Source of the DNA: a virus | Taxonomy: Duplodnaviria; Heunggongvirae; Uroviricota; Caudoviricetes | Virus record (IMG/VR): IMGVR_UViG_2713896785_000022 | Coordinates: 1 to 23,668 of that record | Reading direction: 5' to 3' (one strand) | Length of the DNA: 23,668 bases | Shown here: piece by piece, positions 953 to 20,692 of the stretch | How the letters are laid out: every line of letters begins with the position of its first letter | Position numbering within the stretch: position 1 is the first letter of the stretch | Position numbers and translations under genes: made by a program | The notes under the pieces: model-generated | Told to the model about the DNA's origin: nothing | Seen by the model: the letters and a program-made list of their open reading frames with translations, nothing else | Database searches by the model: none

Positions 953-998
953 GGGAGGTCGGGATAAAAAAAAGACCGGCAGATGCCGGTCAGGTGGG

Positions 999-3332: not shown

Positions 3333-3346
3333 GGTGTAGTTCTCCT

Positions 3347-3667
3347 TCAGTGCAGTACCGGCGCTTTTATGTGACGGGCACAGAGTTCATCCATCACAAC
3401 CAGCCCGAGAAAGGACAGCGACGGCGCGGCCTTCAGGGGGCCGGATTCCATTAAATCTTCCAGCAGGGCACAGGCTATCTGACGCCCTTTTTCCTCACCG
3501 TGCTGGCGCAGATAAAAGCCTTCCAGCTCAGCGGCGATGGCCGCCTCCAGTGACTCAAGGGTGAGATGCGGGTAGCGGTGCTGACGTTCGCACACGGTCA
3601 GCCAGGCACAGGCGACAGCGCGACGGTAAAGGGCAGCGCGTAAGACGGGCGGTAAGGGTGTTTTCAT
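3347..3667 (-). CDS. P4-family conserved hypothetical protein (106 aa)
   Basis: ORF immediately upstream of alpha in the same orientation, 15-bp spacing; position matches the small ORF upstream of alpha in P4-like elements. Confidence 0.55.
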
Positions 3668-3802
3668 TTGCTTTCCTCCCTGTGACAGATGACTGCATTC
3701 TGTGCCGGTTGCATTAACTGATAAGGCATATCTGCGTCTCCTGAAGACGTGCGTATCCCTGCGCGAATACGCACATTTAATTTTTCGGGTGTCGTTTTTT
3801 AA

Positions 3803-4258
3803 TTACAGATAATTGCGGTAACTGTTATCCGGGGTGATTTCCGGGTCAGGCTCCGTGCGGGGAATTTCCCGCCATTCCCGCGCCACCGGTGCCGCCCGGC
3901 TGACCGGAACAGGGTCCTGCGGGTAAATATCCAGATATTTCTCCCGCCATTTCTGTAATTCCGGGTCTCCGGCCATTTCTTTCAGTACCGCATGCCGGTT
4001 TACGGGGCTGCGTTTGAACAGGTCAGGACGGTCACAGGTAAATTCCCGCAGAAAACGCCCCAGCGGGATGTCTGTGGTGCGCCCGTCGGCGAGGATACGC
4101 ACAAGGATACTGAATTTACGGCGGTACGGGTTCCAGACAATTTCCGGGCAGCGGTACGGCATTTCCCACGGAATACCGTCTTCCAGAATGCCGACCACGG
4201 CCACATCGGGAAAACCGGCAGAACGGTAAATCTCACCGGGCTGGGGAAAATCAAACAT
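3803..4258 (-). CDS. P4 orf151-like protein (151 aa)
   Basis: 151-aa ORF in the alpha operon; its ATG overlaps the stop of the upstream ORF (ATGTTTGA), suggesting translational coupling. Confidence 0.6.
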   Translation of the reverse strand: MFDFPQPGEIYRSAGFPDVAVVGILEDGIPWEMPYRCPEIVWNPYRRKFSILVRILADGRTTDIPLGRFLREFTCDRPDLFKRSPVNRHAVLKEMAGDPELQKWREKYLDIYPQDPVPVSRAAPVAREWREIPRTEPDPEITPDNSYRNYL

Positions 4259-4583
4259 GCGTCCTGTCTCCCCGGTCTTTCTGCTGGGCGAGAAAATCGC
4301 GGCACAGGCCTTTGGCTTTCAGTTCATTCAGCACAAAATCAATATCTTCATTCAGGTAACTGAAAATATGCGGAATGTAGAGCTGATGCAGGCCGGAGAG
4401 TTCACGGTGAATCAAATCACCCCCAACAAACTGGGATACGGCGCTGGCGCGGTTGAGCTTATGGTAAGCCTCAATGCTGAGGTGTTCACGGGCGTCATGA
4501 CGCGCTGAGACGGTCTGAGGGGGTTTTTTATTACGCACGGGACACCTCCACCACCGGCAGACGAGCAGCAAGGGAGAGCACAT
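4251..4583 (-). CDS. Hypothetical protein, possibly P4 epsilon-like; start uncertain
   Basis: C-terminal ~110 codons of the 4251..4778 ORF; stop overlaps the start of the 151-aa gene. Possible starts at 4583 or 4619, neither with a clear RBS. Confidence 0.3.
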
Positions 4584-5126
4584 AGTCACGGACAAGGGAA
4601 CGGCGGGCGCTGCGTTCATCACCGGCGACGGTGCGAAGCATACAGATACGGGGATGACGGTCTGCGCGACGGACAGCCGCAAACACAAAGACAAATTCAG
4701 GGTGTGAGGGGGTAAGGGTCGTAGCCATAAGGCAACCTCCGATAACAGCGTAAATGACGCTATCGCCGGAGTTTCCACGCTCGATGGCGATAGCCCAGAC
4801 GGGGGTGGAAATACCGGCGTTATCGGAAACCGGCCAGCCCGGAGGCTGCCCCGCCTGAGCTACCATTGACTCTGCGGTATAATGAGCGGACGCGGGCAGA
4901 ATGCACGGAGTGCCATTTGCTCGACTGACCACACACCACACCATAATCTGGCGCTCTGTGGCGTTGATTGCGACACAAAAAAAGACGCATGGCGCGTCAT
5001 ATGTCGCCGATAACATACTCGGGTTTCCACGCCCGGCTGCCGATTTTGCGGCAGCGGAAAAACTATATCCGCAAATGCCGGAAAAAGGCAAGCCAGAAAA
5101 AGGAAGTTTTTGCAGAACAGGCATCA

Positions 5127-5393
5127 TCATGCGTCGTACCCCCGTTTGCGTCCGGCAATGCGCCCGGCCATCCATGCGGTGACTTCAGAGTGCAGCCAGG
5201 CCACATTTTTACCGCCAAGACTCACCTGCGGCGGAAATTCCCCCTTACGGATGAGTTCATAGATGGTCGAGCGTGACAGGCCGCACAGGTGCATCACTTC
5301 CGGCAGACGTAAAAAACGCTCCTGCGTGATGTCCGGCAGCGGCATCAGTGGCGTCACAGGGGCGGGAGACGGGGAGGAAAAAACAGCTTGCAT
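5127..5393 (-). CDS. vis: Vis/AlpA-family excisionase-type regulator (88 aa)
   Basis: AlpA-like helix-turn-helix ([29 protein letters not shown]…[11 protein letters not shown]); 88 aa as in P4 vis; lies between the ori iterons and the alpha operon. Confidence 0.8.
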
Positions 5394-5671
5394 CGGGCTA
5401 CCTCGTTAATGTCCATACAGCACCGGATAAGTCCGTCCGGCTTCGGGTAGCGCTTTATTTTGTGAATATTTTCGGCAGACGCAACAGGGGGGATTTGTTC
5501 CGGCAGCCTTACAATGGCTGTGTATTTTTTGTACATCAGCGCCAGATAGCTTTAAAACGCTCTGGAAGGAGCTGGAAAAAATTATAGTGAAATACAAATT
5601 GTTTTTTCTTATTTATTTCAGTGAATTAATAAAAATAAAAAGTAATAAACAGCACAAAAAGCCCATCAACG

Positions 5672-5786
5672 GGTGAACAGTGGTGAACAGACGGTGAACA
5701 GTCATTACTGCGATTGTTCACCATTTAACTTACTGTATTACTTATCTTTTTTATTAAGGTGAATAGAGGTGAACAGAGGTGAACAG
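5672..5786. repeat. P4 ori-like iteron cluster (GGTGAACAG / TGTTCACC repeats)
   Basis: GGTGAACAG at 5672, 5682 and 5693; inverted TGTTCACC at 5715; GGTGAATAG at 5758; GGTGAACAG at 5768 and 5778, with an AT-rich spacer. Same octamer as in crr. Confidence 0.65.
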
Positions 5787-5864
5787 TAAAATATAAAAAA
5801 ACAAACAGTAAGCCGGTTTTTCCTGCGACCTTTTCCTGGCTTGCCGGTCTGAGGATGAGTCTCC

Positions 5865-5882
5865 TGTGTCAGGGCTGGCACA
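5865..5882 (+). promoter_or_regulatory. Candidate Delta/Ogr activator site (TGT-N12-ACA) of a Psid-like late promoter
   Basis: TGTgtcagggctggcACA lies about 70-90 bp upstream of the sid start codon, as expected for P2/P4 late promoters, which carry a TGT-N12-ACA dyad near -55. Confidence 0.4.
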
Positions 5883-5954
5883 TCTGCAATGCGTCGTGTT
5901 GTTGTCCGGTGTACGTCACAATTTTCTTAACCTGAAGTGACGAGGAGCCGGAAA

Positions 5955-6689
5955 ATGTCTGACAACACCATCCCTGAATATCTGCAACCCGCGCTGGCAC
6001 AACTGGAAAAGGCCAGAGCCGCCCATCTTGAGAACGCCCGCCTGATGGATGAGACCGTCACGGCCATTGAACGGGCAGAGCAGGAAAAAAATGCGCTGGC
6101 GCAGGCCGACGGAAACGACGCTGACGACTGGCGCACGGCCTTTCGTGCAGCCGGTGGTGTCCTGAGCGACGAGCTGAAACAGCGCCACATTGAGCGCGTG
6201 GCACGCCGGGAGCTGGTACAGGAATATGACAATCTGGCCGTGGTGCTGAATTTTGAACGTGAACGCCTGAAAGGGGCGTGTGACAGCACGGCCACCGCCT
6301 ACCGGAAGGCACATCATCACCTGCTGAGTCTGTATGCAGAGCATGAGCTGGAACACGCCCTGAATGAAACCTGTGAGGCGCTTGTCCGGGCAATGCATCT
6401 GAGCATCCAGGTACAGGAAAATCCGCTCGCCAACACCACCGGCCATCAGGGCTACGTCGCGCCGGAAAAGGCTGTCATGCAGCAGGTGAAATCATCGCTG
6501 GAACAGAAAATTAAACAGATGCAAATCAGCCTCACCGGCGAGCCGGTTCTCCGGCTGACCGGACTGTCAGCGGCAACACTCCCGCACATGGATTATGAGG
6601 TGGCAGGCACACCGGCACAGCGCAAGGTGTGGCAGGACAAAATAGACCAGCAGGGAGCAGAGCTTAAGGCCAGAGGACTGCTGTCATGA
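5955..6689 (+). CDS. sid: Sid-like capsid size-determination (external scaffold) protein (244 aa)
   Basis: ATG at 5955 with GAGGAG RBS 7 nt upstream; 244 aa as in P4 Sid; coiled-coil-rich; first gene of the sid-delta-psu block. Confidence 0.85.
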   Translation: MSDNTIPEYLQPALAQLEKARAAHLENARLMDETVTAIERAEQEKNALAQADGNDADDWRTAFRAAGGVLSDELKQRHIERVARRELVQEYDNLAVVLNFERERLKGACDSTATAYRKAHHHLLSLYAEHELEHALNETCEALVRAMHLSIQVQENPLANTTGHQGYVAPEKAVMQQVKSSLEQKIKQMQISLTGEPVLRLTGLSAATLPHMDYEVAGTPAQRKVWQDKIDQQGAELKARGLLS

Positions 6690-7186
6690 TTTACTGCCCG
6701 TCGTGTGGACATGTTGCTCACACCCGTCGCGCACATTTCATGGACGATGGCACCAAGATAATGATTGCACAGTGCCGGAATATTTATTGCTCTGCGACAT
6801 TTGAAGCGAGTGAAAGCTTTTTCTCTGACTGTAAAGATTCAGGAATGGAATACATTTCAGGCAAACAGAGATACCGCGATTCACTGACGTCAGCCTCCGG
6901 CAGTATGAAACGCCCGAAAAGAATGCTTGTTACCGGATATTGTTGTCGGAGATGTAAAGGCCTTGCACTGTCAAGAACATCGCGGCGTCTGTCTCAGGAA
7001 GTCACCGAGCGTTTTTATGTGTGCACGGATCCGGGCTGTGGTCTGGTGTTTAAAACGCTTCAGACCATCAACCGTTTCATTGTCCGCCCGGTCACACCGG
7101 ACGAACTGGCAGAAAGCCTGCATGAAAAACAGGAACTGCCGCCAGTACGGTTAAAAACACAATCATATTCGCTGCGTCTGGAATGA
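6686..7186 (+). CDS. delta: Delta-like late transcription activator (tandem Ogr-type zinc fingers, 166 aa)
   Basis: Two Ogr-like halves each with CxxC…CxxC (CPSCGH…CRNIYC and CCRRCK…CTDPGC); 166 aa as in P4 Delta; start overlaps the sid stop. Confidence 0.9.
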   Translation: MIYCPSCGHVAHTRRAHFMDDGTKIMIAQCRNIYCSATFEASESFFSDCKDSGMEYISGKQRYRDSLTSASGSMKRPKRMLVTGYCCRRCKGLALSRTSRRLSQEVTERFYVCTDPGCGLVFKTLQTINRFIVRPVTPDELAESLHEKQELPPVRLKTQSYSLRLE

Positions 7187-7259
7187 GGGCTGCCGGTTAA
7201 CACCGGCCGTCGCCGCACACCGTATTTTTATTCTTCAGCATGATGAGAAAGAGATAACG

Positions 7260-7832
7260 ATGGAAAGCACAGCCTTACAGCAGGCCTTTGACACCTGTCA
7301 GAATAACAAAGCAGCATGGCTGCAACGCAAAAATGAGCTGGCAGCGGCCGAACAGGAATACCTGCGGCTTCTGTCAGGAGAAGGCAGAAACGTCAGTCGC
7401 CTGGACGAATTACGCAATATTATCGAAGTCAGAAAATGGCAGGTGAATCAGGCCGCCGGTCGTTATATTCGTTCGCATGAAGCCGTTCAGCACATCAGCA
7501 TCCGCGACCGGCTGAATGATTTTATGCAGCAGCACGGCACAGCACTGGCGGCGGCACTGGCACCGGAGCTGATGGGCTACAGTGAGCTGACGGTCATTGC
7601 CCGAAACTGTGCCATACAGCGTGCCACAGATGCCCTGCGTGAAGCCCTTCTGTCCTGGCTTGCGAAGGGGGAAAAAATTAATTATTCCGCACAGGATAGC
7701 GACATTTTAACGACCATCGGATTCAGGCCTGACGCGGCTTCGGTGGATGACAGCCGTGAAAAATTCACCCCTGCGCAGAACATGATTTTTTCGCGTAAAA
7801 GTGCGCAACTGGCATCACGTCAGTCTGTGTAA
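7260..7832 (+). CDS. psu: Psu-like polarity suppression / capsid decoration protein (190 aa)
   Basis: 190 aa as in P4 Psu; last gene before cos in the sid-delta-psu block. Confidence 0.85.
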   Translation: MESTALQQAFDTCQNNKAAWLQRKNELAAAEQEYLRLLSGEGRNVSRLDELRNIIEVRKWQVNQAAGRYIRSHEAVQHISIRDRLNDFMQQHGTALAAALAPELMGYSELTVIARNCAIQRATDALREALLSWLAKGEKINYSAQDSDILTTIGFRPDAASVDDSREKFTPAQNMIFSRKSAQLASRQSV

Positions 7833-7996
7833 AATTCCCCGAAAATCCGCCTGTTTTTACTGAAAAAAGCCATGCATCGATAAGGTGCATAGCTTTGCAT
7901 GCGTTTCCCTGCCTCATTTTCTGCAGACCGCGCCATTCCCGGCGCAGTCTGAGCGTGTCAGTACAACTGCATTAAAACCGCCCCACAAAGCGGGCG

Positions 7997-8015
7997 GGCG
8001 AGGCGGGGAAAGCAC
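7997..8015. other. cos site: 19-nt P2/P4-type cohesive-end sequence GGCGAGGCGGGGAAAGCAC
   Basis: Exact match to the P2/P4 cohesive-end sequence as I remember it, located between psu and the cargo gene as in P4. Confidence 0.8.
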
Positions 8016-8425
8016 TGCGCGCTAAAAAGGAAATTGAAATCCAGTAACCCCAAATACCTTAGCTAAAAGAGCCTAAGGAATCTAACGCATTCAACTGTCA
8101 TAAAACATAATGTGTTACATAATGGAGATAGTGTGAAAACAACTGATATAGATCATAGAAGGCTTGGCTCCGTAAGACATCTAAGGTGTTATCTTAATCA
8201 ACTGCAGCAAAGGCATTCTGCCACTGTTAATGGAAACTTGTTTCGAATTGGATAACTTCAATGTTGCATCGTGTTTTACATATCTTGTTCAACTACAATA
8301 CATTGTTGCCTGCAAATTTAATTTTTTATTAGAATACTTGTAACTTAGTTCGCAGCATCAATTGTGTTTTTCAAACTTGATGTTAACTGATGATATGGAA
8401 CATTATTTGTTAGAAAGGTGATAAT

Positions 8426-10021
8426 GTGCAAGAACGGGATCTAGGAAGCATGGGCGAGGCATTATTTATGCAACTTTGCGCATCTGTTGGGTTAATATAC
8501 AACCCATCATTAAAAGACAGTGCTGGATGGGATTTCATTGTTGACTTCCCTACACAATTTTCAACTCACCCAATGATAGATAAAAGTGCATCCCCTATCG
8601 AGTGTAAAATTCAAGTCAAAGCAACTGATGGTACTTCAAAAAAAGTACAAATTACTTTATCAAATATGATGCGTTTATGCGGAAGTAAGCTCCCCGCTTT
8701 CTTTTTTTTCATTGAGTATAATAAAAGCAATACTCCACAAGCAGTTTATGTTAGACACTTTGATAAAAATCTAATGTTTAAAACATTACAAAGAGCCAGA
8801 GAAAACTCTATTTTAAAAGAACCCAAAAAACTGAACAAAATTAACATTACAGTATCATTTGACAGCCCCCATAAATTAGACGCAATAACAGGTGAACATT
8901 TAAAGTCTACAATTGAATCATACGTAAATGAAGGTATGGAAGTTTATACTGAAAAGAAAATAAATCACTTAAAAAATTTAGGTTATGAAAATGGAGGATA
9001 TAAATTAACTTTTCAGACAAAAGCGGAAGTTGAATACGATAATCTGATCAATGCGTCTCTTGGATGGGTTAATAAAGCGAAAGCTAGAAATATAAAGTGC
9101 TTTGACGAACGATTTAATATCTCTATGCCTCTTGAGAACAAGAGTTTTTCTGAAGCCGATTTATCGTTTGGGGTTGAAAATTTTGAAACAGATGCCATAT
9201 TGAAAATAACAAACATGACATCAAAAAAAACCATTCGCCTCGAATGTAAATTATATGTTAGTCCACTATCCATCAATGCTCCAGATAAGCATATCAAAGC
9301 AAGATTAAAATCCTCTTATTTCGACATTTTAATTTATCTTAAAACAGGACTCCTTACATATCGATTTGATTCATATGACAACATATTGAATCTATTTGAG
9401 ATCAAAGATAATTTAACCATCATGCGATGGATTTATGAACAGAAGGACATGCTGGAATTTGAAATAAATATTTCTAACAGTCATAACCCAATGACTTTAA
9501 TAACAAATGCCAATAAAGAACTAATACAAGACACCTCATTAATTGAAAGCTGTATTCAGGCATTAAATACAACAGAGAATGCTATTATTATATCTGACCG
9601 ATTAAGTATTCAGGGGCAAGTTAAGACAACTATTACAAAATTGGGTATACATAGTGATAATACTAACATAATTGGGCAATTACTAAGTAACCCAAATTAT
9701 TCCCCAGCAATGAAACTGACATCTAAGAATAAAATAAAATCACCCCCAAGTGAAATAAATGCATGTTGTTTAGCAGTTATCGCCACTAAACTAGGTGATT
9801 TTATAGTGCTTGTTATAATCACCATTAACGGAAAAGGAGTTTACTCTAAAAATGAATATCACCTGTCTAACCCCAGTATAAAATTAGAAGACATAATGTA
9901 TTGTTATCACAATGAAGATATCACAAAAAAATTAATAACAAAAACAAAATCAATAGCAGATAAACATATGAAAAGGGATGACATTGTCTTCATAAACTTA
10001 TTTCACGATGACAATAATTAG
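8426..10021 (+). CDS. Hotspot cargo gene: 531-aa protein with N-terminal DUF4365-like PD-(D/E)xK nuclease signature and unassigned C-terminal region; candidate anti-phage defence protein
   Basis: Long ORF in a strongly AT-rich segment between cos and int. GTG at 8426 (AAGGTG upstream) or ATG at 8450 (AGGAAG upstream). Motifs …KDSAGWDFIVDF… and …IECKIQVKATDG… fit the DUF4365 pattern. Followed by a strong terminator. Confidence 0.8.
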   Translation: MQERDLGSMGEALFMQLCASVGLIYNPSLKDSAGWDFIVDFPTQFSTHPMIDKSASPIECKIQVKATDGTSKKVQITLSNMMRLCGSKLPAFFFFIEYNKSNTPQAVYVRHFDKNLMFKTLQRARENSILKEPKKLNKINITVSFDSPHKLDAITGEHLKSTIESYVNEGMEVYTEKKINHLKNLGYENGGYKLTFQTKAEVEYDNLINASLGWVNKAKARNIKCFDERFNISMPLENKSFSEADLSFGVENFETDAILKITNMTSKKTIRLECKLYVSPLSINAPDKHIKARLKSSYFDILIYLKTGLLTYRFDSYDNILNLFEIKDNLTIMRWIYEQKDMLEFEINISNSHNPMTLITNANKELIQDTSLIESCIQALNTTENAIIISDRLSIQGQVKTTITKLGIHSDNTNIIGQLLSNPNYSPAMKLTSKNKIKSPPSEINACCLAVIATKLGDFIVLVIITINGKGVYSKNEYHLSNPSIKLEDIMYCYHNEDITKKLITKTKSIADKHMKRDDIVFINLFHDDNN

Positions 10022-10030
10022 TAATTTTCG

Positions 10031-10056
10031 AAGGGGCTAGCCCCTTTTCTTTTTTA
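10031..10056 (+). terminator. Rho-independent terminator after the hotspot gene
   Basis: Perfect palindrome AAGGGGCTAGCCCCTT followed by TTCTTTTTT, 10 nt after the stop codon. Confidence 0.7.
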
Positions 10057-10091
10057 TAAAAAATAAATACTAAAACTAAAAAACAATTATA

Positions 10092-11258
10092 TTAACTAAA
10101 AATATTATCTGAATACCATTGCATCATCACCTTTCGCTTTTCAAAATATTGGGCGTGATTATATGTTCCTCTTATAGAGTTTTTATCTACATGAGCAAGT
10201 TGCATTTCAATCCAAGCGGTATTAAAGCCATTTTCATGAAGAATTGTTGATAATGTATGCCTAAACCCATGTCCTGTAAGTTTTCCAGCATAGCCTATTC
10301 GTTTGATAAGTTGATTAACACTTGCCTCACTCATAGGTTTATTTGGATCATTCCGTCCAGGAAAAACATAACGATAATTTCCTGTCATAGATTTGAGTTC
10401 ATTAAGAAAGCCTAGCGCCTGCGTCGATAAGGGGACAAGGTGCGGCCTACGCATTTTCATTCTCTCAGCAGGAATTTCCCAAATAGCGTTATCTAGATCA
10501 AACTCTTGCCATAATGCTGCTCGTAACTCGATAGTTCTAACCCCCGTAACCATTAATAATTTTGTGGCAATCTGAACAAGTCGGCTTCCTGTATAACTAT
10601 CTAAAGCACGCAGAAAATCAGGTATCTCATCTGATTTTAAGAAAGGAAAATGATTTGATTTATGAACTTCAAGGGCACTGGACAGATCTGCCGCAGGATT
10701 AAACTCTGCTCTTCCAGTAGCAATGGCATATCGAAAAACCTCTGAGCAACGTTGCCGCACTTTGCGCATTTTCTCCAATGCACCACGCTTCTCAATTTTA
10801 CGCAGTACATTTAGCAATTCTAGCGGTTTAATTTCCCCTACAGGCCTCGCCCCCACATACGGAAAAATATCATTCTGGAACGCTTCAATAATATCTGAGG
10901 CATACCCAGCAGACCATTTTGCCGATTTCATCTGATGCCACTCTCTGGCAATCTTTTCGAATGCGTTCTCAGATTGAATTCTTAATGCTAGTTTTTGTTC
11001 TTTTCGAACCTCACTAGGATTTTTTCCCTCAGCCACTATTTTTCGTGCCTCATCACGGCGAGAACGAGCTTCAGCAAGTGTGATCGTTGGATAGACACCA
11101 AGCGAGATCATTTTAGGCTTACCTGCATAGCGGTAACGAAATCGCCAACTTTTACTTCCATTTGGCTCTACAAGTAAAGACAACCCTTGCCCATCCCCAA
11201 GTGTATAGGCTTTAGCTTCAGGTTTAGCACGGCGAATCTGCATATCATTTAGGGGCAT
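10092..11258 (-). CDS. int: P4-type tyrosine integrase (388 aa)
   Basis: N-terminal arm-binding domain typical of P4-family integrases (IRRAKPEAKAYTLGDGQGLSLLVEPNGSKSWRFRYRYAGKPKMISLGVYP), C-terminal catalytic region with …GHGFRHT… and …RGTYNH…; convergent with the cargo gene. Confidence 0.9.
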   Translation of the reverse strand: MPLNDMQIRRAKPEAKAYTLGDGQGLSLLVEPNGSKSWRFRYRYAGKPKMISLGVYPTITLAEARSRRDEARKIVAEGKNPSEVRKEQKLALRIQSENAFEKIAREWHQMKSAKWSAGYASDIIEAFQNDIFPYVGARPVGEIKPLELLNVLRKIEKRGALEKMRKVRQRCSEVFRYAIATGRAEFNPAADLSSALEVHKSNHFPFLKSDEIPDFLRALDSYTGSRLVQIATKLLMVTGVRTIELRAALWQEFDLDNAIWEIPAERMKMRRPHLVPLSTQALGFLNELKSMTGNYRYVFPGRNDPNKPMSEASVNQLIKRIGYAGKLTGHGFRHTLSTILHENGFNTAWIEMQLAHVDKNSIRGTYNHAQYFEKRKVMMQWYSDNIFS

Positions 11259-11583
11259 GTGTATAGAATTCCATAATCGAACAGGAACATATACATAATC
11301 CTATACACATTTAGTACTGGATTCCACTGGAAGGTTATGGACTAACATGGACAAAAAGAACAAAAAATCTTTTATAAAACAGTATGATTATGGATTAATA
11401 CGGATGTTTGAAGAAGTGGAGATGGTGCCGATAATAGGAGTAAAACACTCGATTAATCTCGTGTTAATGCCATCACCTACGACCATTACTAATTGATTGA
11501 ATCTTATAGAAAAATCATCATTTTCTATGCGTCACAATCAATTTTCACATTACAAACGCTCCGACACTTTAGCCGGAGATTTT

Positions 11584-12861
11584 ATGAGATACAAGCCTAA
11601 CCAATACTTAATCTGTGATTCTTACGGTAACTACTATTTAAGGATCACGCTGCCTGTGTATATGAAGCCCTTTTTTGAAGGAAAAAGGACGTTTGTCAGA
11701 AGTCTACATACAAGTAATCTTCGTGTGGCACGTAGAAAGCGTGATCAGATTGCAGATGAATACCATTGCTTACGGGAGAGTGTTGCCCCTGTAAACAGCA
11801 CAATAGAAAACACGCTGGAACTGTTACGCAGTAAGGCTAAATACGCCAAAACAGCTACCAGAGTGCAAGATACAGCGTCTTCGTGTCCGTCATTGCTTAA
11901 AATTCTTGAAATCTACCTGACAATTAACAGCACGAAGAAGAAGCCAGCCACTTTAGCTAAGGCAAGAAAAGCGGTAGAGATGTTTCTCTCCTACCGTAAA
12001 AAGCCTGATATTGCATTGCAAGATGTAAGCCGCACCACTGTTACAGGCTGGATTGAACACATGCAAAAAACTCTTTCACAACAATCAATTGCAAATTATA
12101 TCAGCCCAATGGCCCAGCTATGGGAATTAGCTTCATCACGTTACCACGATGCGCCAGAAAGGGCGCTCTCCCCCTGGCGAGGGCATAGGCTTGATGTGGC
12201 ACAAAGTAGAGAGAGCTACGAGGCATTTTCTAACAAAGAGCTATTGCAGGTGTTGCAAGTATTTTCCGGTAATTCAGCAGAAAACAAAGAAATGACGGCT
12301 TTGTGTCTTATCGGTTTATATACAGGTATGCGGATCAATGAGATAGCAAGTCTCACAATAGACGATGTGAAAGAGATCGAAGGTGTGCTGTGTTTTGAAA
12401 TCACACAGGGAAAAACGAAAGCTGCGGCACGTCTTGTGCCTGTGCATAGCCTTATCACTCCATTGGTGTTATCTCTTCGTGAAAAGCCTCACAATGGCTT
12501 TTTGTTCTATCACGCCAGCATTACAGAGCGTGCTGACGGTAAACGCTCTACGTGGCATACACAACGATTTACAAGAGCTAAACGAAAGGCTTTAGGGGAA
12601 AAGGGAACAGAAAGGAAAGTGTTTCATTCTCTGAGACACGGAGTAGCACAGCTTCTTGATCGAAATCAAATTCCAGAGGACCGCATAGCTTTAATGTTGG
12701 GCCATCAGCGCGGCAATACAGAAACATTCCGCACATATAGCAAGAATGCAGCTTCTCCAGTAGAGCTTAAAAAATATATTGAGCTTTTACGCTACCCTGA
12801 AATAGAGAAAGGCTTATCAATCAATAAAAAATCAAATTTAAGGCGTAAAACAACGCTATAG
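11584..12861 (+). CDS. Second tyrosine recombinase/integrase (about 425 aa; ORF could start at 11497)
   Basis: Catalytic signatures …GMRINEIASLT…, …HSLRHGVAQ…, …GHQRGNTETFRTYSK…; ATG at 11584 has a GGAGA RBS. Divergent from the P4-type int with ~325 bp between the two starts. Confidence 0.8.
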   Translation: MRYKPNQYLICDSYGNYYLRITLPVYMKPFFEGKRTFVRSLHTSNLRVARRKRDQIADEYHCLRESVAPVNSTIENTLELLRSKAKYAKTATRVQDTASSCPSLLKILEIYLTINSTKKKPATLAKARKAVEMFLSYRKKPDIALQDVSRTTVTGWIEHMQKTLSQQSIANYISPMAQLWELASSRYHDAPERALSPWRGHRLDVAQSRESYEAFSNKELLQVLQVFSGNSAENKEMTALCLIGLYTGMRINEIASLTIDDVKEIEGVLCFEITQGKTKAAARLVPVHSLITPLVLSLREKPHNGFLFYHASITERADGKRSTWHTQRFTRAKRKALGEKGTERKVFHSLRHGVAQLLDRNQIPEDRIALMLGHQRGNTETFRTYSKNAASPVELKKYIELLRYPEIEKGLSINKKSNLRRKTTL

Positions 12862-12941
12862 ACGTAATAAAGAGGCTTCAATATAGACTGATGCCTCTTT
12901 TATGATTATCTCGTTACAGAGCGTTTCATAGGCGTTTAAGG

Positions 12942-13619
12942 CTATTGTTTAAATACTGGCGTTACAACGTCTTGCCCTGGGCTTTTTTGATTTTTCTGTT
13001 CTGTTGTATTTACCTGCATTTTAACCTGTCCCCCTACAGATTTATTTGGTGCTGTTTTTACCGCAATTGCGCTTGTAGTTGCTTTAGAGACAAGACGGAT
13101 TTGCTCAAAATCAAGAGTAAACAATAGGCTTTCGCTTGCTTCTTCTTCATAAGACATGCCAACTAACACAACGTTGTCATAATTTTTTAACTCAGTGACA
13201 AGTAGGAAAGGTTGGCGACTGTCCATCAACTGATTTAGGTATTCAAGCATAAGCATACGTCGATTGCCGTTAATTCCCGCATTCTTAATCATATCGGGAT
13301 TGAGCTTCAATACGGTTTCAGAGATACGCCCTTGTAATGTGAACTTGTTATTCCGTATTTGAACATGATCACTAACTTCTGATCCTGATTCGACAGCATA
13401 GCTTGTAACGTCTGCATTTCTGCTAATTTTCGTCGATTCCACGCTATCAAATGATAATGCCTGGTAGTCATTGTAAGCAGCATTTGCACCACTGCCGAGG
13501 TTAGAGGCAATGATCGCAAAGCCGTTACCCCCTTTAGTTGTTCTACCGTTGCTATCGTTGCTTGTGCTGTTGATTTTCGCCTCAGTCGGGCGACCAATGG
13601 TTAACGGACCCATTGCCAT
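12942..13619 (-). CDS. Hypothetical protein (225 aa), possibly virion-associated
   Basis: Last gene of the leftward operon containing the capsid genes; AAGGA RBS; no recognisable motif. Confidence 0.55.
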   Translation of the reverse strand: MAMGPLTIGRPTEAKINSTSNDSNGRTTKGGNGFAIIASNLGSGANAAYNDYQALSFDSVESTKISRNADVTSYAVESGSEVSDHVQIRNNKFTLQGRISETVLKLNPDMIKNAGINGNRRMLMLEYLNQLMDSRQPFLLVTELKNYDNVVLVGMSYEEEASESLLFTLDFEQIRLVSKATTSAIAVKTAPNKSVGGQVKMQVNTTEQKNQKSPGQDVVTPVFKQ

Positions 13620-13666
13620 AATTTGTAATCCTTATTTAAGGGGGCTAAACAGCCCCACAGCGATGA

Positions 13667-15508
13667 TTAATAGGTTGACCCGCCTGACATAACACCCAGC
13701 GTTAATAGCTTGCTAAACTCAGCGGAGGATGCCTTTGATTTGAAGTCGATAAATTCGCTCAATCGTCCGGTGTCTGATTCGATAGTTAGCGGCACTTCTG
13801 CATTTACTTGTAATTCTGGATTGAAGTTAATAACAGGTGCAAAGGTGTAAGAAGGAGCCTTGAAAGCTTGTTGTGCTGCACTCTGTTTCAGATTTGCAAT
13901 GTTTTGTCCTTCGAGACTGTATTGATTTACAGCCTGCGCCCCACCTACCGTTTCTTCTGGCATAAACCAGCTTTTAATAGTGTTAACCAGGGAATTGCTG
14001 TTATCTGGCTTAATTGTTCCGGTGCCAGCGCCTTTATATTGATCAGGAGTGAGATTAGAAAGATTCTGCTTCATTCCTTCGTTAGATAGTGGCGGTGCAT
14101 CCCCTAAATTCTTTTGAATAGCTGCCGTCTTCTCGTCGTTTTTCATCAGCCAGTTGATTGCTTTCATTACAGCGTTAACCAATCCGCCGATAGCCTCGCC
14201 TAATTTGGTAAACATTGGCAGCATTGCAACCATGCTCTTTTTAAACTCTTCAATCACTTTCGGATCAAGAGATTTCATAAAGCCATCAACAAAGGCGATC
14301 CCTTGTGAGTCAGAAAGCCCACTAAGTGCATTATTCAGTTCACGGAATTTAATAACGCTTTCCTGTTGTGCCTGCGTTACCCAGCGCCCTGATTCTCGTT
14401 GTTCTCGTGCTGATTGTTCCACTTCTTTAGCGGAGCGTGTCCAGTATTTAGAGGTGAGCATCAAATCATCAGCCAGATCTTCCAGACGACTACCGATTTG
14501 TGCATCTGAATAGCCTTTAGCTACCATTCCCTGAACTGCTTTACTAACCAGACCAGCCGGATTATCAGCAAAGTCTTTTAGATCCTTTTTAGTTAGGAAT
14601 CCTTCATTCATTAAAGTATTGATGCCGCTATCGCCGCCCTTCCATTCTCCTTTACCAGTTTTCTTATCAACTACATATTCAGCCTCATCATAAGATTTAG
14701 TAGCCTTCTCCCGTACATCTTTCATCTGATCGAGATACTTACGTTTACCTTGATCCCCCATCATTGAATCAACGCCGTTTTTATACGCCCATTGCTCAAT
14801 ATTGTTCATCTGGTTAACGTCTACACCGCCCAGCTTCGCACGGCTATACAATTCTCCCAGCGTTTCAGCACTGGCAAAGCTGTTAGTAACAAATTCAGAG
14901 GCTTTGCTCATAGCCATATATGCAGCGCCAGCGCCTAAGCCACCCAGCATAACAGCCGCAGCACCGCCGCCAATACTCCCGCTACCCTTAACAGGTGCAT
15001 AGGCTTTAGCGTAAGCGTTACGATTGCCATTAATCTTACGTTGTTGCTGTTGTAGGCGTTTCATTTGGCTATTCATACGTGCCAGACTAATAGCGCCTCT
15101 TTCATATTGGAGGGCAATTTCTCTAGCCTGTGCAATAGCTTTATATTGTTCCGCTACAGAAAGACGGTGCATTGCACTAATGCTTGATCCAACGTCTAAA
15201 AGCTTTAATTCTGCCTTCTCTTTGCGTGCTGCCAGGGCTTTTTGTTCTCTTGCAACTACACGTTGAGCGGCTAATTGTGCTTTAGCATTAGCTTTATCAG
15301 CCTGTGCTTGCTTTTTAGCAATATCGTCTACGTCTTTTTTTGCTTTAGCGGTTGATTGTTTATGTGTCTTAACACGCAATTCTATATCTTTCACAGCCGC
15401 CATTTGTTTACGAAGTTTTTCTACTTCTGCTTTTGCTTTCTCTAATGATGGTCGATCAACCTGGAAGGTGACAACGTTTGATAAGCGGCTGACGGTAAGG
15501 TCTAACAT
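13667..15508 (-). CDS. 613-aa coiled-coil protein with a Gly/Ala-rich hydrophobic segment (scaffold-, tape-measure- or ejection-protein-like)
   Basis: N-terminal ~170 aa of Lys/Ala/Gln-rich heptad-like sequence, then GSGSIGGGAAAVMLGGLGAGAAYMAMS, then a long mixed region; same operon as the major capsid gene. Confidence 0.65.
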   Translation of the reverse strand: MLDLTVSRLSNVVTFQVDRPSLEKAKAEVEKLRKQMAAVKDIELRVKTHKQSTAKAKKDVDDIAKKQAQADKANAKAQLAAQRVVAREQKALAARKEKAELKLLDVGSSISAMHRLSVAEQYKAIAQAREIALQYERGAISLARMNSQMKRLQQQQRKINGNRNAYAKAYAPVKGSGSIGGGAAAVMLGGLGAGAAYMAMSKASEFVTNSFASAETLGELYSRAKLGGVDVNQMNNIEQWAYKNGVDSMMGDQGKRKYLDQMKDVREKATKSYDEAEYVVDKKTGKGEWKGGDSGINTLMNEGFLTKKDLKDFADNPAGLVSKAVQGMVAKGYSDAQIGSRLEDLADDLMLTSKYWTRSAKEVEQSAREQRESGRWVTQAQQESVIKFRELNNALSGLSDSQGIAFVDGFMKSLDPKVIEEFKKSMVAMLPMFTKLGEAIGGLVNAVMKAINWLMKNDEKTAAIQKNLGDAPPLSNEGMKQNLSNLTPDQYKGAGTGTIKPDNSNSLVNTIKSWFMPEETVGGAQAVNQYSLEGQNIANLKQSAAQQAFKAPSYTFAPVINFNPELQVNAEVPLTIESDTGRLSEFIDFKSKASSAEFSKLLTLGVMSGGSTY

Positions 15509-15542
15509 GCTAATTGTTTCCCTGTATTATGATTGTTGTTTA

Positions 15543-15740
15543 TTATTGTTTTTTAGAACAGTAGTATGTAATTGCTTCAAAAGTGCTGCACCCAGTCTGA
15601 AACACACGCTGCCGCACATTATTTGCATCAATTGAAAGCATTCTGCATAAGGCACTGACATTGATTATTGAGTCATCGCTAATAGCTGCCAGTTCTTTTA
15701 CAGATTTAAGAATTAATGCCTGTGAATTTTCTGTATTCAT
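15543..15740 (-). CDS. Small hypothetical protein (65 aa; ORF could extend to 15818)
   Basis: ATG at 15740 preceded by a GAGAGA-type RBS; lies between the capsid gene and the 613-aa gene. Confidence 0.4.
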   Translation of the reverse strand: MNTENSQALILKSVKELAAISDDSIINVSALCRMLSIDANNVRQRVFQTGCSTFEAITYYCSKKQ

Positions 15741-15894
15741 TGGTTTTCTCTCACATATATATATTTTTATTTGGGTTTGTAGACAGTAGAAAAACAAAAA
15801 GGGCAAGAGACAGCGCATATTTTGCTTATATGATTATCCCTTACCCTTATTGCCCCGATTATTTCCAGACGTAGGGGAACGTCTTTAACACTTT

Positions 15895-16923
15895 TTACGC
15901 TACTGTGATCTGCACAGAGAAGCCAACACCGTGGTTAACCACAAGCGAGCTATTCTCGGTCACTACGTGCACTGCGTCGCCGCGATTCGATTCGAAAGCA
16001 TAGCTGTAATACTCTTTAGCGCCTTGAGACAGCAGATCGAAGGAACTGGAAGGCGCGCCATAGATAGCTTGGTAAACACCTCCACCCTTAGCGAATTTAG
16101 GCACGGCTACAGCGTCAGCGGTCATATGTGCCAGCAGCAGCGGATCAGTCACTTTGATCAGATCAATGTTAGTTCCTGGAATGGTGAAAGTAGTTACGCC
16201 AGGCAGCAGAGAACGCACATTAAACACCACGTTTGCATCGTCTACAGGGCTTGCATATTGGAACGCATTGACCATGCCAACGCTGTAACGAATAGCGTTG
16301 AATGCCGCAGGTTTACAGAACACAACAACACGCTCAATGGTTGCAGCCTGGCTTTGTGCCTTAGCAATCATATCCGTATGCATCTGATCAAATTGCTTGA
16401 ATACGGTCATTGTGTTGGTGCTGGATGCGTCAACGGTTGCAGTCATTGGAGACACACCGAACAGAGTGCTGTAATCGATCAGAACATCGTCAGTTTTCGG
16501 GGTATGTGTCTTGCCAGAGAACAGAGAAGCCGCGAGGATGCTTTCTTTAGTGCGCTGGAATGCAACATTGTGTTTAGCGATATATTCCGCATACAGATCC
16601 GGCAGTGTTTCTTCAATAGAGCTTCCGGCTTTGCGTTTGCCTTGCACGTCCTGCGGTTTGATCAGGTCTTCACGCAGGAAGTAAGGGATTTCAATCAGCC
16701 ATTCTTCCCCGTTCTCACGCTTAGTAACGTTATGCTCAGAGCTAAAACGGCTTGTAGGATGGTTGAACAGAGATTCATTGCTCTCGATAAGCTGGGAAAC
16801 AGCCACTTTGTGACTTTCTACAGGCACAGGATCAGTAAAATCCAGAGTAGACAGTAGGTAATTGCGTGAGTCGTTTAATTCGAACAGTGGAGCAAGATCA
16901 ACCACTTCATTTCCGATAATCAT
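15895..16923 (-). CDS. Major capsid protein, lambda gpE-like (342 aa)
   Basis: Length matches lambda gpE (341 aa); C-terminus …GFSVQITVA resembles the gpE C-terminus as I recall it (…FVSVQLA); directly preceded by a ~118-aa gene in D-then-E order. Confidence 0.65.
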   Translation of the reverse strand: MIIGNEVVDLAPLFELNDSRNYLLSTLDFTDPVPVESHKVAVSQLIESNESLFNHPTSRFSSEHNVTKRENGEEWLIEIPYFLREDLIKPQDVQGKRKAGSSIEETLPDLYAEYIAKHNVAFQRTKESILAASLFSGKTHTPKTDDVLIDYSTLFGVSPMTATVDASSTNTMTVFKQFDQMHTDMIAKAQSQAATIERVVVFCKPAAFNAIRYSVGMVNAFQYASPVDDANVVFNVRSLLPGVTTFTIPGTNIDLIKVTDPLLLAHMTADAVAVPKFAKGGGVYQAIYGAPSSSFDLLSQGAKEYYSYAFESNRGDAVHVVTENSSLVVNHGVGFSVQITVA

Positions 16924-16939
16924 TATTATTTATTCCTTC

Positions 16940-17296
16940 TTAAGATGTGAAAACAGAGTGGAAGCCTTCAAGCTGGAAGCCTTTAGCAGCTTCTTTTACA
17001 GCGCCTTCGGCATTCAGGGCATCAGCTTTGATGCAAACGAGTCCGGCATTAGCACGAAGCACGTTAACTGTTTTATTTGAATCAGCAGTTACGAAGTCAG
17101 ACACAACGACAAGAACATCAGCGCCGCTAACATATTTAGCGCCGGATGAATCAATGAGGTCGCCGCACGTTACATCTTGTGCAAGTGCTGCAAATTTTTT
17201 GCTTTCTACAGCCGCGTAAGGGTCGGTTGCATAGCTCACTACGTCAGTGATGCTTTTACGATGTGGGAAAACATCGCTTAATTTTAAAATAGCCAT
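16940..17296 (-). CDS. Head decoration protein-like (118 aa)
   Basis: Size and position immediately upstream of the major capsid gene, as for lambda gpD; strong AAGGA RBS; the call rests on context, not sequence similarity. Confidence 0.45.
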   Translation of the reverse strand: MAILKLSDVFPHRKSITDVVSYATDPYAAVESKKFAALAQDVTCGDLIDSSGAKYVSGADVLVVVSDFVTADSNKTVNVLRANAGLVCIKADALNAEGAVKEAAKGFQLEGFHSVFTS

Positions 17297-17505
17297 TATT
17301 TTTCCTTAGATTGTTTGATTTGTTGAGCTTTAGCATTAATCAAATCTTGGTGAGATGGTTTATTGCTTTCAGCCTTATAAAGACGTTCACACTGTTTCTT
17401 TAATTCTGTGGGAGTGATGCCAAGCGCGTAGGCTGTAGCATTCAACACATCTTCAGTTAGTGTTAACTTTTCATTGCCATATTTCAGGATAATTTCTTGT
17501 TTCAT
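17296..17505 (-). CDS. Small hypothetical protein (69 aa), first gene of the capsid operon
   Basis: Stop overlaps the start of the decoration-like gene (TAATG), suggesting translational coupling. Confidence 0.5.
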   Translation of the reverse strand: MKQEIILKYGNEKLTLTEDVLNATAYALGITPTELKKQCERLYKAESNKPSHQDLINAKAQQIKQSKEK

Positions 17506-18497
17506 TTATATAACGATTCCATTATGTTGGAATTTAATAAATCCCCCAGGCTATAAGAGGTTCAATCTGACAATAGCGAGGGGGATTTATTAACGTGTCG
17601 GGCAATACACAGCGATAAGTAAAACCTTGAGGAGGTTTTAAACGTATCTCTAAGAATGCTTATTAAACATGCTTAAAGATAGGTTTAAAGGGTGAACAGA
17701 TATTCCTGAAAACATGCTCTTAGGAAAACATGCGGAATCAATCAGGAATATCTATTCGGGGCGCGGTGGCTAACCGCTATCTTTCATGGTGTGGATGCAC
17801 CAGTCAGATTTTAAGGAATCACTGTTCCAATCTACTCACAGATTAAATTTTAATAGGGATTAACTACACCAACAGTAATCTACCGTTTCAGAAAAAGCTT
17901 TTTTACAACCAAAGATTATAGATTTGCAGTCTATAAAACCCGTTTTGCTATCAATATTTCCAAAGGTTATTGCACAATTCTTAGCTAAACTCTCTCTGCT
18001 TGCGGCTAACGCTATGCAGATGATTGTTTTTGACAACAACTTAATAGATTATTCTGTTACTAACTTCTGTCATTAAATAAGAGTTTAATGATGTTAGTAA
18101 ATAGTTATAAAATATAACTATCAGTGTAAGGCTCTTTAATGTTTTCGGACAAAATAAGGAGCTTTAGGATAAGCATAGATGAAAATAAGAGCGGGAAGGG
18201 CAAGGAGATAACACCTACCCGCTTTTATCAAAAATTAAGCACAATGCCTAACAACATTCATCAACACAACGTAGAAACAATCAACAATCAAAGAGGGAGT
18301 TATGATTATTCTAAAACTTCTTGAGGGGATGGAAGGTAATATTTGTTAGAGGTTAATGCCACTCAACCTTTGAGGCTATCACCTTCCATATGCAGGGATT
18401 TATGACAGTAGAAGGATTAACACCAGTCAAAACCTTTTTATCTACCCCTAATATTATTATATAATGAAATCGTTATAAATGCAAATGATTTTCATTA

Positions 18498-18806
18498 TCA
18501 TTTAGAGAAAATAGCACTTTTTGCTAAATCATCTACTAATTGCTGAATCTCTTCACTTGCAGCCTTTAACGTGCTGGCGGTGTCTGTGATGGTTTGAGTG
18601 CACATCTTGGCATCGTCCTCAATTAGCTCTAAATCGCTCACCAGAGAGATAAAATCGTCAAGGCTTACATTCACCTTCATTAAGCTAATAACGCATTGAG
18701 AGAGCGTGTAATCGCATAAATCTGAATAGGCTTGATTTATTCTTGTTTGTAGTGAGATAGTCAGATCTAAAAGTTGTTCCATTGCATTGCTAATATCTTC
18801 TTCCAT
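18498..18806 (-). CDS. Small acidic hypothetical protein (102 aa)
   Basis: ORF in the leftward small-gene cluster; Asp/Glu-rich; start overlaps the stop of the upstream gene. Confidence 0.5.
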   Translation of the reverse strand: MEEDISNAMEQLLDLTISLQTRINQAYSDLCDYTLSQCVISLMKVNVSLDDFISLVSDLELIEDDAKMCTQTITDTASTLKAASEEIQQLVDDLAKSAIFSK

Positions 18807-19009
18807 TATGCGGCTTCTCCTTGTAATGCATCATTAATCATATTCAATACGATGTTAAAAGGTGTCTTGAGCGTCAGCACTTCATCACGGTAACGCTCTA
18901 ATGCTTCGTAGTCTTCTGTTTCTTTTGCCAGCCGAATTAACTCTGCATAGTTTTTTGCATCAGACAGGATCATCTGAAATAATTGTGTTTCTTGAATATA
19001 GCCAATCAT
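18806..19009 (-). CDS. Small hypothetical protein (67 aa; ORF could extend to 19051)
   Basis: ATG at 19009 has an AAGGA RBS; stop overlaps the start of the downstream gene (ATGA). Confidence 0.45.
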   Translation of the reverse strand: MIGYIQETQLFQMILSDAKNYAELIRLAKETEDYEALERYRDEVLTLKTPFNIVLNMINDALQGEAA

Positions 19010-19066
19010 TATTTTTCCTTTTTTGAATATTTTCATTGGGCGCTTATACATACACCCATCATTTTA

Positions 19067-19450
19067 TTAGTTAGAACGTTTGTTAGAAGCTAATGTATCT
19101 TCTAAATGAGCCATCAGATCGACTTCCGATGCACCACCTACACAATTATTGAAAGCGTTAAATCCCAAAAAATGATGATAGGAGCTAAACCCTAAAAGCT
19201 GCCAACGTTTCAGAGTGCCATCAGAAATGATAGTTTGTTTTCTTGTTCTTGGGCGAAAGTAAACGCCTGGCATTGATTGGATTATTTCTAATTCTTCATC
19301 ACTTAATTCAGGGGATTCTGTTTCAAGAATAAAGATTATCTCTTCCCCTGGAATTTCGTTATTGGTATGTGTCGGTGGACGTTGTCTTGTTGAATTGAAA
19401 TTACTGTTTTTTTCAATACGTTTTAAGTTGTTCTTTTTCTTTCTTCCCAT
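19067..19450 (-). CDS. Hypothetical protein with basic N-terminus (127 aa)
   Basis: ORF in the same cluster; N-terminal MGRKKKNNLKR… lysine/arginine-rich stretch. Confidence 0.5.
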   Translation of the reverse strand: MGRKKKNNLKRIEKNSNFNSTRQRPPTHTNNEIPGEEIIFILETESPELSDEELEIIQSMPGVYFRPRTRKQTIISDGTLKRWQLLGFSSYHHFLGFNAFNNCVGGASEVDLMAHLEDTLASNKRSN

Positions 19451-19546
19451 TTTCCCTCTTTTTATGTGGATTATAAAAACTGAATGCCATAGTTACGATG
19501 AATATCGCCATAAATGCATTTGCCATATGTATTGCCCGATCTGTTG

Positions 19547-19816
19547 TTATTGATTGTTTGTGATAAACAATTCAAAATCTTTGTTTAATTTCAAAAGACG
19601 AAATGTAGTGCTGTTAATCCCTTCATAATCCAGCACACCGAACGATGTAAAATGGTTTAACCAATGATTCACGTGTTGTGCGCTGTAGCCGCCTAAACTA
19701 CAAAAGCTAACCACTGTCGGGGGTGAGAACTCTATGTCCAAAATAGATTTTAAAATGTTGTATCCGCTCTCAGTTATTTCAATAGTTTTGTTTCCTATAG
19801 TGATGTTATAAGCCAT
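19547..19816 (-). CDS. Hypothetical protein (89 aa)
   Basis: ORF in the same cluster and orientation, 10 bp downstream of the 208-aa gene. Confidence 0.5.
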   Translation of the reverse strand: MAYNITIGNKTIEITESGYNILKSILDIEFSPPTVVSFCSLGGYSAQHVNHWLNHFTSFGVLDYEGINSTTFRLLKLNKDFELFITNNQ

Positions 19817-19825
19817 TTATTCTCC

Positions 19826-20452
19826 TTAAAAGGGTAGTGAATCATATATTGTGCTCTCACTTTTGAGATCAATTATCAAAGAGTCAAAATCATTTTCACA
19901 AAGATAGATATTCTTTGAATCTAATGCTCGTTTTACAAAATCTTCTGTTTCTTCGTGCGGTGGTTTCTTCTTATCAAGGGAAAGAAGCCAAGTAAAAATT
20001 TCGGGCCGCTCAGGGAACTCTGATTCCTGTTTTTCTTCTTCAACGATGATTTCTGAAACATTCAATATTTCATTAGATTCGTTTTCTTTCTCAGAAGGAT
20101 CAGGTAGTGATGACTCTCCTGGGGGAGTAATATGTGCATCTGTGAGAGGGAGAGCATTGTAAATCAAAGATGAAATATACGGATCAGGATGTGGGGATGT
20201 TTCTAATAATCCCATCTCTTTAAGATCGTTTATCTTACGTTTAATTGTTGATGGTGAAGACTTAAAAATCTTAGCTAATGTTTCGTGACTTTCATAACAA
20301 TTAAGACCATTTTCCTGATAACTAAGAAATCTATAATAAAGAACAATGTGCAATAAATCTAAAACCTTACCTTCTGGAAATTCATTAGAGTAAATCTTTG
20401 ATATATTATCAAACGTGTTATAGTGTTTTGTAAAAGTTGGCTGGTTTATCAT
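19826..20452 (-). CDS. Winged-helix DNA-binding protein with acidic C-terminal half (208 aa); putative replication initiator or regulator
   Basis: N-terminal …CYESHETLAKIFKSSPSTIKRKINDLKEMGLLE… resembles winged-helix motifs of replication-organizer and regulator proteins; C-terminal half is Glu/Asp/Ser-rich. Confidence 0.55.
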   Translation of the reverse strand: MINQPTFTKHYNTFDNISKIYSNEFPEGKVLDLLHIVLYYRFLSYQENGLNCYESHETLAKIFKSSPSTIKRKINDLKEMGLLETSPHPDPYISSLIYNALPLTDAHITPPGESSLPDPSEKENESNEILNVSEIIVEEEKQESEFPERPEIFTWLLSLDKKKPPHEETEDFVKRALDSKNIYLCENDFDSLIIDLKSESTIYDSLPF

Positions 20453-20503
20453 TAAAAATCTCCTTATAAATCACGCTTAATGCGCTACTAAAGTGAATGA
20501 GGA

Positions 20504-20671: not shown

Positions 20672-20692
20672 AGTTTTCTCCTTCTCCTGTTA

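Follow-up and report, generated by a model that had tools for sequence, protein, structure and literature searches.

A thrW-derived core between divergent integrase genes in Escherichia coli: a probable hybrid attachment site of a P4-like satellite and a second element

Gene content of the locus

The window, that is the whole stretch of 23,668 nucleotides analysed here, corresponds to the reverse strand of the chromosome of E. coli strain 2013C-3264 (NZ_CP027544.1), which it matches at 100%. Two single-base indels separate the two versions, the window having one extra base at position 10850 and another at 13640, and a homopolymer error in one of the two versions is probably the cause of these differences. 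The P4-type integrase gene is intact in the window, yet it is annotated as frameshifted in RefSeq NZ_CP027544.1 because of the one-base difference at 10850. The left end (positions 1 to 411, plus strand) is host DNA and contains, according to the RefSeq annotation of the locus, the 3′ fragment of the LysR-family pseudogene yagP, beside paoD. This yagP′ flank forms side B′, the chromosomal one, of the integration site at thrW and abuts thrW directly in genomes whose site is empty. The thrW gene (tRNA-Thr, anticodon CGU) is intact and lies on the minus strand around 630 bp past the right end of the window, toward proA; since it sits beyond this end, ARAGORN found no complete tRNA in the window. 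The order on the plus strand is yagP′ flank, a shortened core, a P4-like satellite of 10.9 kb with its integrase gene last, a 20-bp thrW core, a second element (hereafter element 2) of 12.9 kb with its integrase gene first, intact thrW and proA.

The left element (532 to 11421) contains the core set of a P4-like satellite, with int, alpA/vis, epsilon, the alpha primase, psu and delta, to which sid is added by position. The distal arm of its attachment site (532 to 651) bears two direct copies of CTATACAC. A repeat search then revealed two 120-bp direct repeats (652 to 952, 181 bp from start to start) adjoining the primase gene; TGTTCAC/GGTGAAC iterons are legible within this region, which we take to resemble the crr replication region of P4. 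The P4 alpha-like primase-helicase (999 to 3332, minus strand) matched the Pfam families Zn_Ribbon_Prim, Toprim_3, D5_N, DUF5906 and Pox_D5. It is followed by a block of P4-like core genes and RNAs (3347 to 7832), defined by Pfam and by Rfam at the gathering threshold, which includes a DUF5375 protein. Pfam identified in this block epsilon (Derepression, 4251-4538), an Ash-family protein (4531-5175), AlpA/Vis (5127-5393), delta (Ogr_Delta, 6686-7186) and psu (Psu, 7260-7832), while the open reading frame at 5937-6689 gave no Pfam match and owes the label sid to its position alone. Rfam matched the C4/CI immunity RNA (C4 antisense RNA, 4783-4870, 77.9 bits), the isrK RNA (4978-5055, 74.7 bits) and the c4-a1b1 targets of the P4-like immunity region (51.5 bits, window 4783-5068).

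The variable slot between psu and int is occupied by a cargo open reading frame of 531 amino acids (8426 to 10021, plus strand), for which searches with Pfam and PADLOC returned no match. Relatives carry in this slot a reverse transcriptase, a pair composed of a nuclease and a UvrD-type helicase, or an ABC-three-component system (O157). Because the same slot carries those cargos in relatives, we consider the 531-residue frame a candidate anti-phage gene.

Element 2 spans 12,858 bp between its cores, of which 11442 to 23668 lie in the window, and it ends around 630 bp further on, at thrW; it was characterized with Pfam and PHROGs and by its solo copy in strain cM8a. Both collections supported, besides the integrase gene, a Dit-like baseplate protein (12942-13619, minus strand), a tape-measure-like protein of 613 amino acids (13667-15508, minus strand), a lambda-E-type capsid protein (15895-16923, minus strand), an HTH/replication-initiator-like protein (19826-20452, minus strand) and a serine recombinase (22408-22965, plus strand). 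No terminase, portal, AlpA or primase was matched in element 2 by Pfam or PHROGs, and no excisionase was recognised in it. We also compared its content with that of the PICI (int, alpA, primase-replicase and packaging-redirection genes), the cf-PICI (own terminase, portal, protease and capsid) and the PLE; element 2 corresponds to none of them, its structural homologues being limited to the capsid, tape-measure-like and Dit-like proteins. Two stretches of element 2 are poor in open reading frames, at 17505-18498 (around 1 kb) and at 20875-22408 (around 1.5 kb). The second contains at around 21846-21891 a tandem pair of 23-nt repeats, TCAAATTGACCTACCCCCCTAGC and TCACAGTGACCTACCCCCCTAGC, which may act as signals for an origin or for packaging.

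Among 50,697 phage records, a DNA search yielded no full-length relative of element 2. A block of 240-570 bp at window positions around 20115-20683 shows, however, 95.7-98.3% nucleotide identity with the virulent phages inny and muut (around 147 kb), the former being classified as Justusliebigvirus, Stephanstirmvirinae. The best phage relatives of the Dit-like protein (53%) and of the capsid (25%, full length) also belong to the Stephanstirmvirinae, in the genera Phapecoctavirus and Justusliebigvirus. Homologues occur in phage nieznany as the major head protein gp244, the tape measure gp235 and the adjacent gp234, an order shared with element 2; the tape-measure-like protein is 28% identical to gp235 in its central part and 47% identical over the N-terminal 34 amino acids. 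Comparison of the window with the copy of strain CUVET23-CCU12 gave dN/dS values of 0.15-0.19 for the int2, Dit-like and tape-measure-like genes, which are 97-99% identical; by this measure the three genes are under purifying selection. Between the same two copies, the capsid gene and the upstream gene of 118 codons (window 15895-17296) are swapped for a 23-29%-identical module (18785-20214 in the CUVET23-CCU12 copy), the capsid itself being 23% identical.

The integrase genes and the shared core

The P4-type tyrosine integrase gene (10092 to 11258, minus strand) has the orientation of thrW and encodes 388 amino acids with the Pfam domains Arm-DNA-bind_3, Phage_int_M and Phage_integrase. Strains 4750 and C5 encode the identical protein (WP_001130500.1), from a gene that lies 164 bp from thrW. 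The tyrosine integrase of element 2 (Int2, 425 amino acids; 11584 to 12861, plus strand) was recognised by PHROGs and by the Pfam domains DUF6538, Phage_int_SAM_5 and Phage_integrase (PF00589, E = 2.4e-17), and the tyrosine-recombinase residues R250, H348, R351, H374 and Y385 are legible in its alignment in the pattern R...H-x-x-R...H...Y. The two proteins are unrelated beyond their fold (BLASTP E = 0.08). Open reading frames and domains thus agree with the preliminary description of this DNA, which had reported two divergent tyrosine integrases with starts around 325 bp apart: the start codons at 11258 and 11584 leave an interval (11259-11583) of 325 bp.

This interval had been described as having no tRNA-like sequence, a statement that has to be corrected. 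Positions 11421-11441 repeat exactly the 21 nucleotides of the thrW 3′ end, GATGGTGCCGATAATAGGAGT. Within this repeat, the 20-bp core ATGGTGCCGATAATAGGAGT (11422 to 11441) comprises the last 19 nt of thrW plus one nucleotide downstream, and exactly two copies of the 19-nt tRNA part are present in the 45-kb locus, where shuffled sequences predict 0.00. A gapless search for a third copy of the core, with up to three mismatches, returned just these two; the shortened copy at the distal end of the satellite was found by eye and with a 10-mer search.

On the left of the core lies the proximal arm of the P4-like attachment site (11259 to 11421, 163 bp), which includes the int upstream region and corresponds to the int-thrW spacer of strain 4750, the two sequences differing by a single mismatch in 1350 bp up to position 11441. 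On its right lies the Int2-side arm of the element-2 attachment site (11442 to 11583, 142 bp), which includes the int2 upstream region and is identical to the spacer between yagP′ and int2 in the solo element 2 of strain cM8a. The limits of the core were also given by megablast with a query made of both int genes and the interval. Matches containing int2 alone begin at query position 1331 (window 11422) and cover 1331-2770, whereas matches containing the P4-type int alone span query positions 1-1350 (to window 11441) and often overlap an annotated tRNA-Thr; the two classes overlap by 20 bp, which is the thrW core. These breakpoints at 11422 and 11441 bear out the earlier proposal that the attachment sites of both elements share the interval.

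These data are strengthened by an alignment of seven junctions from five genomes. Three types of left flank (the chromosomal B′ flank, the P4 int-side arm and the thrW-side arm of element 2) are combined with three types of right flank (the Int2-side arm of element 2, thrW itself and the P4 distal arm), and the joint is always ATGGTGCCGATAATAGGA(G/A)T. The identity between attP and attB deduced for element 2 is the 20 nt ATGGTGCCGATAATAGGAGT, while for the P4-like element it extends over around 17-18 nt, to GGA, after which the P4 side reads 'atgaa' versus 'gtcgaa' in thrW. On the strength of these alignments, the core at 11422-11441 is the crossover region for both elements; the positions of strand exchange inside it are not fixable from sequence.

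Short repeats accompany the arms. The motif CTATACAC is present in five copies in the 23.7-kb window, against 0.44 expected, and all are at the ends of the P4-like element (starts 591, 603, 11201, 11259 and 11301), with direct copies at 591-598 and 603-610, one on the minus strand at 11259-11266 and one on the plus strand at 11301-11308. This pattern is as expected of arm-type Int binding sites, for which these repeats are candidates. As to element 2, TTACAAAC occurs once in the Int2-side arm (11550-11557) and twice in the thrW-side arm, with no others in 45 kb; its enrichment over the whole locus is not significant alone, which makes it a weak candidate motif. Rfam at a permissive threshold gave no match in the interval 11259-11583, and since scans of the interval for sigma-70 promoters and terminators gave counts no better than shuffles, we make no claim for a promoter.

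The divergence of the two genes would follow from the position of int in each element. The P4-type int stands at the thrW-proximal end of the satellite, reading away from the tRNA gene, and int2 at the thrW-distal end of element 2, reading inward, as intF of K-12. Because the upstream arm of each int gene is retained as far as the core, the two genes come to be divergent and 325 bp apart.

Occupancy of thrW in complete genomes

The preliminary description had proposed that related genomes lacking one or both elements would define the empty sites and the core, and 5,426 complete E. coli genomes, which are not phylogenetically independent, supplied such a comparison: 948 have an empty site, each element exists as a solo copy, and the core delimited by them is that at 11422-11441. 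The empty site was sought with a synthetic query joining the yagP′ flank to thrW, for which the best matches are single, ungapped and 99.9-100% identical, for example in ATCC 8739. The Int2 region was found in 416 genomes, so that element 2, of around 13 kb, is present in around 8% of complete E. coli genomes, and the thrW-type P4 int region (80% identity or more) in 461. Both int genes are adjacent in the order of the window in 29 genomes and in the reverse order in two; this total of 31 compares with around 35 under independence (416 × 461 / 5426), a figure that is indicative only, given the kinship among the genomes. The exact pair of the window occurs in one genome of the collection.

The earlier reading had been held open to two findings, that the second recombinase always travels with the P4-like element or that it is a fragment devoid of other element-2 genes. 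Neither describes these genomes: 387 of the 416 genomes with int2 (around 93%) have no adjacent P4-type int, and int2 travels with a full conserved element, as in cM8a. This solo element 2 has the structure yagP′-core-int2...thrW, encodes an identical Int2 protein and is collinear with the window at 98-99.8% apart from IS1 insertions. Likewise, around 94% of the thrW-type P4 int genes have no adjacent partner, and the P4-like element is solo in strain 4750, where 10,890 bp align collinearly at 98.0% and 164 bp separate int from thrW. The reverse composite of isolate SC467 reads yagP′-int2...element 2-core-P4 alpha...P4 int-thrW. In the composites of CUVET23-CCU12 and EC18 the P4-like int is around 84% identical to that of the window, and the former carries a reverse transcriptase as cargo. 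Since P4-like int and cargo differ between composites, the arrangement has been assembled more than once.

Arrays at thrW also exceed two elements and involve further integrase types. Strain 4750 has, after its P4-like element, the remnant of another arm-type integrase and a vat island (4750 locus 3954-4289), and the P4-like element of O157 comes after a lambdoid remnant whose thrW core measures around 45 bp.

Junction comparison and alignment showed that the distal junction of the satellite (515 to 531) is a degenerate, shortened core, ATGGGGT-GATAATAGGA. It is without 22 bp (aactctttgattttaatggtgc) that are present in CUVET23-CCU12 and in the empty site, the loss including both host flank and core; the host flank ...aaatATGGGGT continues directly into GATAATAGGAatgaac. 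About half of the core is left at this outer site of the satellite, while element 2 has two perfect cores of 20-21 bp. The shortened junction is found in four complete genomes only (2013C-3264, C5, VL40 and 2013C-4974). In strain C5 this P4-like element, with an identical Int and the shortened junction, adjoins thrW, and no element 2 is present. The 22-bp loss probably makes the satellite, and the composite too, harder to excise, so that the satellite would be partly locked in. It may have arisen by a microhomology deletion (ATGGGGT versus ATGGTGC) or by an event at a secondary site (ATGGGGT), two origins that the junction does not separate. The distal P4 junctions also show a C/CC polymorphism.

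Probable tandem integration at thrW and its implications

Taken together, these data make it very probable that the interval is a hybrid attachment site, produced when two independent elements integrated site-specifically, in tandem, at the 3′ end of thrW. A repeat of the tRNA 3′ end stands at every junction (intact thrW, the exact copy at 11421-11441 and the degenerate copy at 515-531), the empty site and each element alone at thrW all exist, and the middle junction unites one arm of each element at the core. Each integrase would recombine the core beside its own arms, the middle site serving both elements. By acting on the thrW core and the middle one, Int2 would free element 2 and restore the thrW-P4-int junction of strains 4750 and C5; the predicted junction of the circle is ...ttttctgttgATGGTGCCGATAATAGGAGTaaaacactcg... 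and that of the repaired chromosome ...gaagtggagATGGTGCCGATAATAGGAGTCGAACC..., as in these two strains. P4-Int would have to recombine the middle core with a distal site that is without 22 bp in this strain, freeing the satellite with a predicted circle junction ...gaagtggagATGGTGCCGATAATAGGAatgaacatt.... For both integrases and both elements, activity and excision in this strain have the status of predictions, with which the occupancy states seen among the genomes accord as regards independent excision of each element. As to the history of this lineage, the P4-like element was most likely resident first and element 2 would have entered later into the rebuilt thrW, because C5 shares the element and the shortened junction without element 2; a single event at thrW, integration or excision of element 2, would therefore convert the C5 structure into that of the window.

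The preliminary description had left the choice whether the two elements were inserted in tandem at one site or one of them had entered the other at its edge. The tandem reading holds, since both elements use the thrW 3′ end. Nested insertion, with one element lodged in the edge of its neighbour, at a site unrelated to thrW, and one of them interrupted, draws on nothing but the close apposition of the int genes and is scarcely credible: the junction falls exactly at a copy of the thrW core, both sides are collinear with solo copies up to this core with nothing missing or interrupted, and in the reverse-order composite it is the other two arms that meet at the same core. We also regard as very unlikely that the whole is a single composite with two integrases, moving as a unit between the outermost att sites. 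Although 29 genomes share the adjacent int-int arrangement and the accretion literature describes tandem arrays of other elements that excise together, the large majority of both integrase genes stand without an adjoining partner, the partners vary in P4-like variant and cargo (84% versus 100% int identity), the reverse order exists, and the outer distal site is 22 bp short in this strain.

Integration hotspots of E. coli are often exchanged through homologous recombination of their flanks. The composite could accordingly have been assembled or transferred by recombination of flanking DNA rather than by fresh integration, and inherited ready-made with imported DNA (for example through homology at proA/thrW and in the P4-like element), with no new integration by Int2. 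The shortened distal junction, common to three other strains, would accord with such an import, as would the presence of the exact pair in one genome only, which leaves the event undatable and unpolarised. We nevertheless judge it unlikely: no donor with the exact composite was seen, the parts exist separately at 98-100% identity, and a single step of integration or excision links the window to C5. Moreover, imported DNA would concern the last step only, and the structure itself would still result from tandem site-specific integration.

Tandem integration at thrW has well-documented counterparts. The gene is a recognised integration hotspot (PMC7545054), and Sp1 and Sp2 of strain Sakai, the latter P4-like, lie at thrW (PMC8190617, PMC2669165). 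In E. coli O157:H7 these elements (CP-933H/I) likewise place a P4-like satellite (Sp2) distal to a second thrW element, with a copy of the core between them; the thrW-proximal partner is there, however, a degraded lambdoid prophage with a core of around 45 bp and not an Int2 element, the P4-like int is around 82% identical to that of the window, and the cargo is also different. Shigella flexneri SfI and SfX were placed in tandem at thrW by sequential infection (PMC3306764), but they are complete and related serotype-converting phages with similar integrases, whereas the elements and the integrases of the window are unrelated. CP4-6 of E. coli K-12 (IntF, ptwF) occupies the same thrW-yagP site with its int at the thrW-distal end and the 5′ end of the gene beside the distal core, as int2; it differs by its gene content and by a distal repeat of around 47 nt of thrW, versus 20 nt. 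We considered element 2 as a relative of CP4-6/IntF and rejected this on the core lengths and on the identity between Int2 and IntF, which is 24% over 153 amino acids of the catalytic domain.

Similar events are described as site-specific accretion, a concept that has been reviewed, of integrative elements such as ICEs and IMEs and in phage-ICE tandems (PMC5704250, PMC13651849); an incoming element uses an att site flanking a resident, producing a hybrid att, and the arrays are sometimes co-mobilised. Sp10 is integrated beside Rac in the same manner, the attR of Rac serving as attB (PMC2669165). These cases mostly involve related integrases or conjugative elements, whereas two phage-related elements with unrelated integrases are joined here. 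Moura de Sousa and Rocha (2021) reported that tandem elements occur among P4-like loci (PMC8628076); the satellites of that study combine a core set with a variable cargo slot, as does the left element of the window, but their tandems are formed by P4-like elements or remnants and not by a P4-like element paired with an Int2 element. The int-int arrangement is in this sense ordinary, a further instance of documented tandem occupancy of thrW. The interval nevertheless shows where each of the two elements ends and which att core it uses, in a region that automated pipelines would report as a single 24-kb prophage, and exact predictions for the excision junctions follow from the mapped cores. Core lengths at thrW also differ among the integrase lineages that converge there, which number at least four (P4-type, Int2, IntF and the lambdoid Sp1 type).

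Element 2 is potentially of greater value than the int-int interval. Its features would fit a live, mosaic, helper-dependent element rather than a decaying prophage. From its gene relationships we tentatively raise the possibility that it represents an undescribed family of satellites, or of phage-parasitic or defence islands, exploiting virulent phAPEC8/phi92-like myophages (Stephanstirmvirinae). Literature searches on DUF6538 and on satellites of Stephanstirmvirinae returned nothing relevant, and no paper linking satellites with these phages was found. If this possibility were true, the locus would stack at one tRNA gene two satellites with different helpers, P2-like and phAPEC8-like, and around 8% of E. 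coli strains would carry a parasite of phAPEC8/phi92-like phages, which are used in phage-therapy collections.
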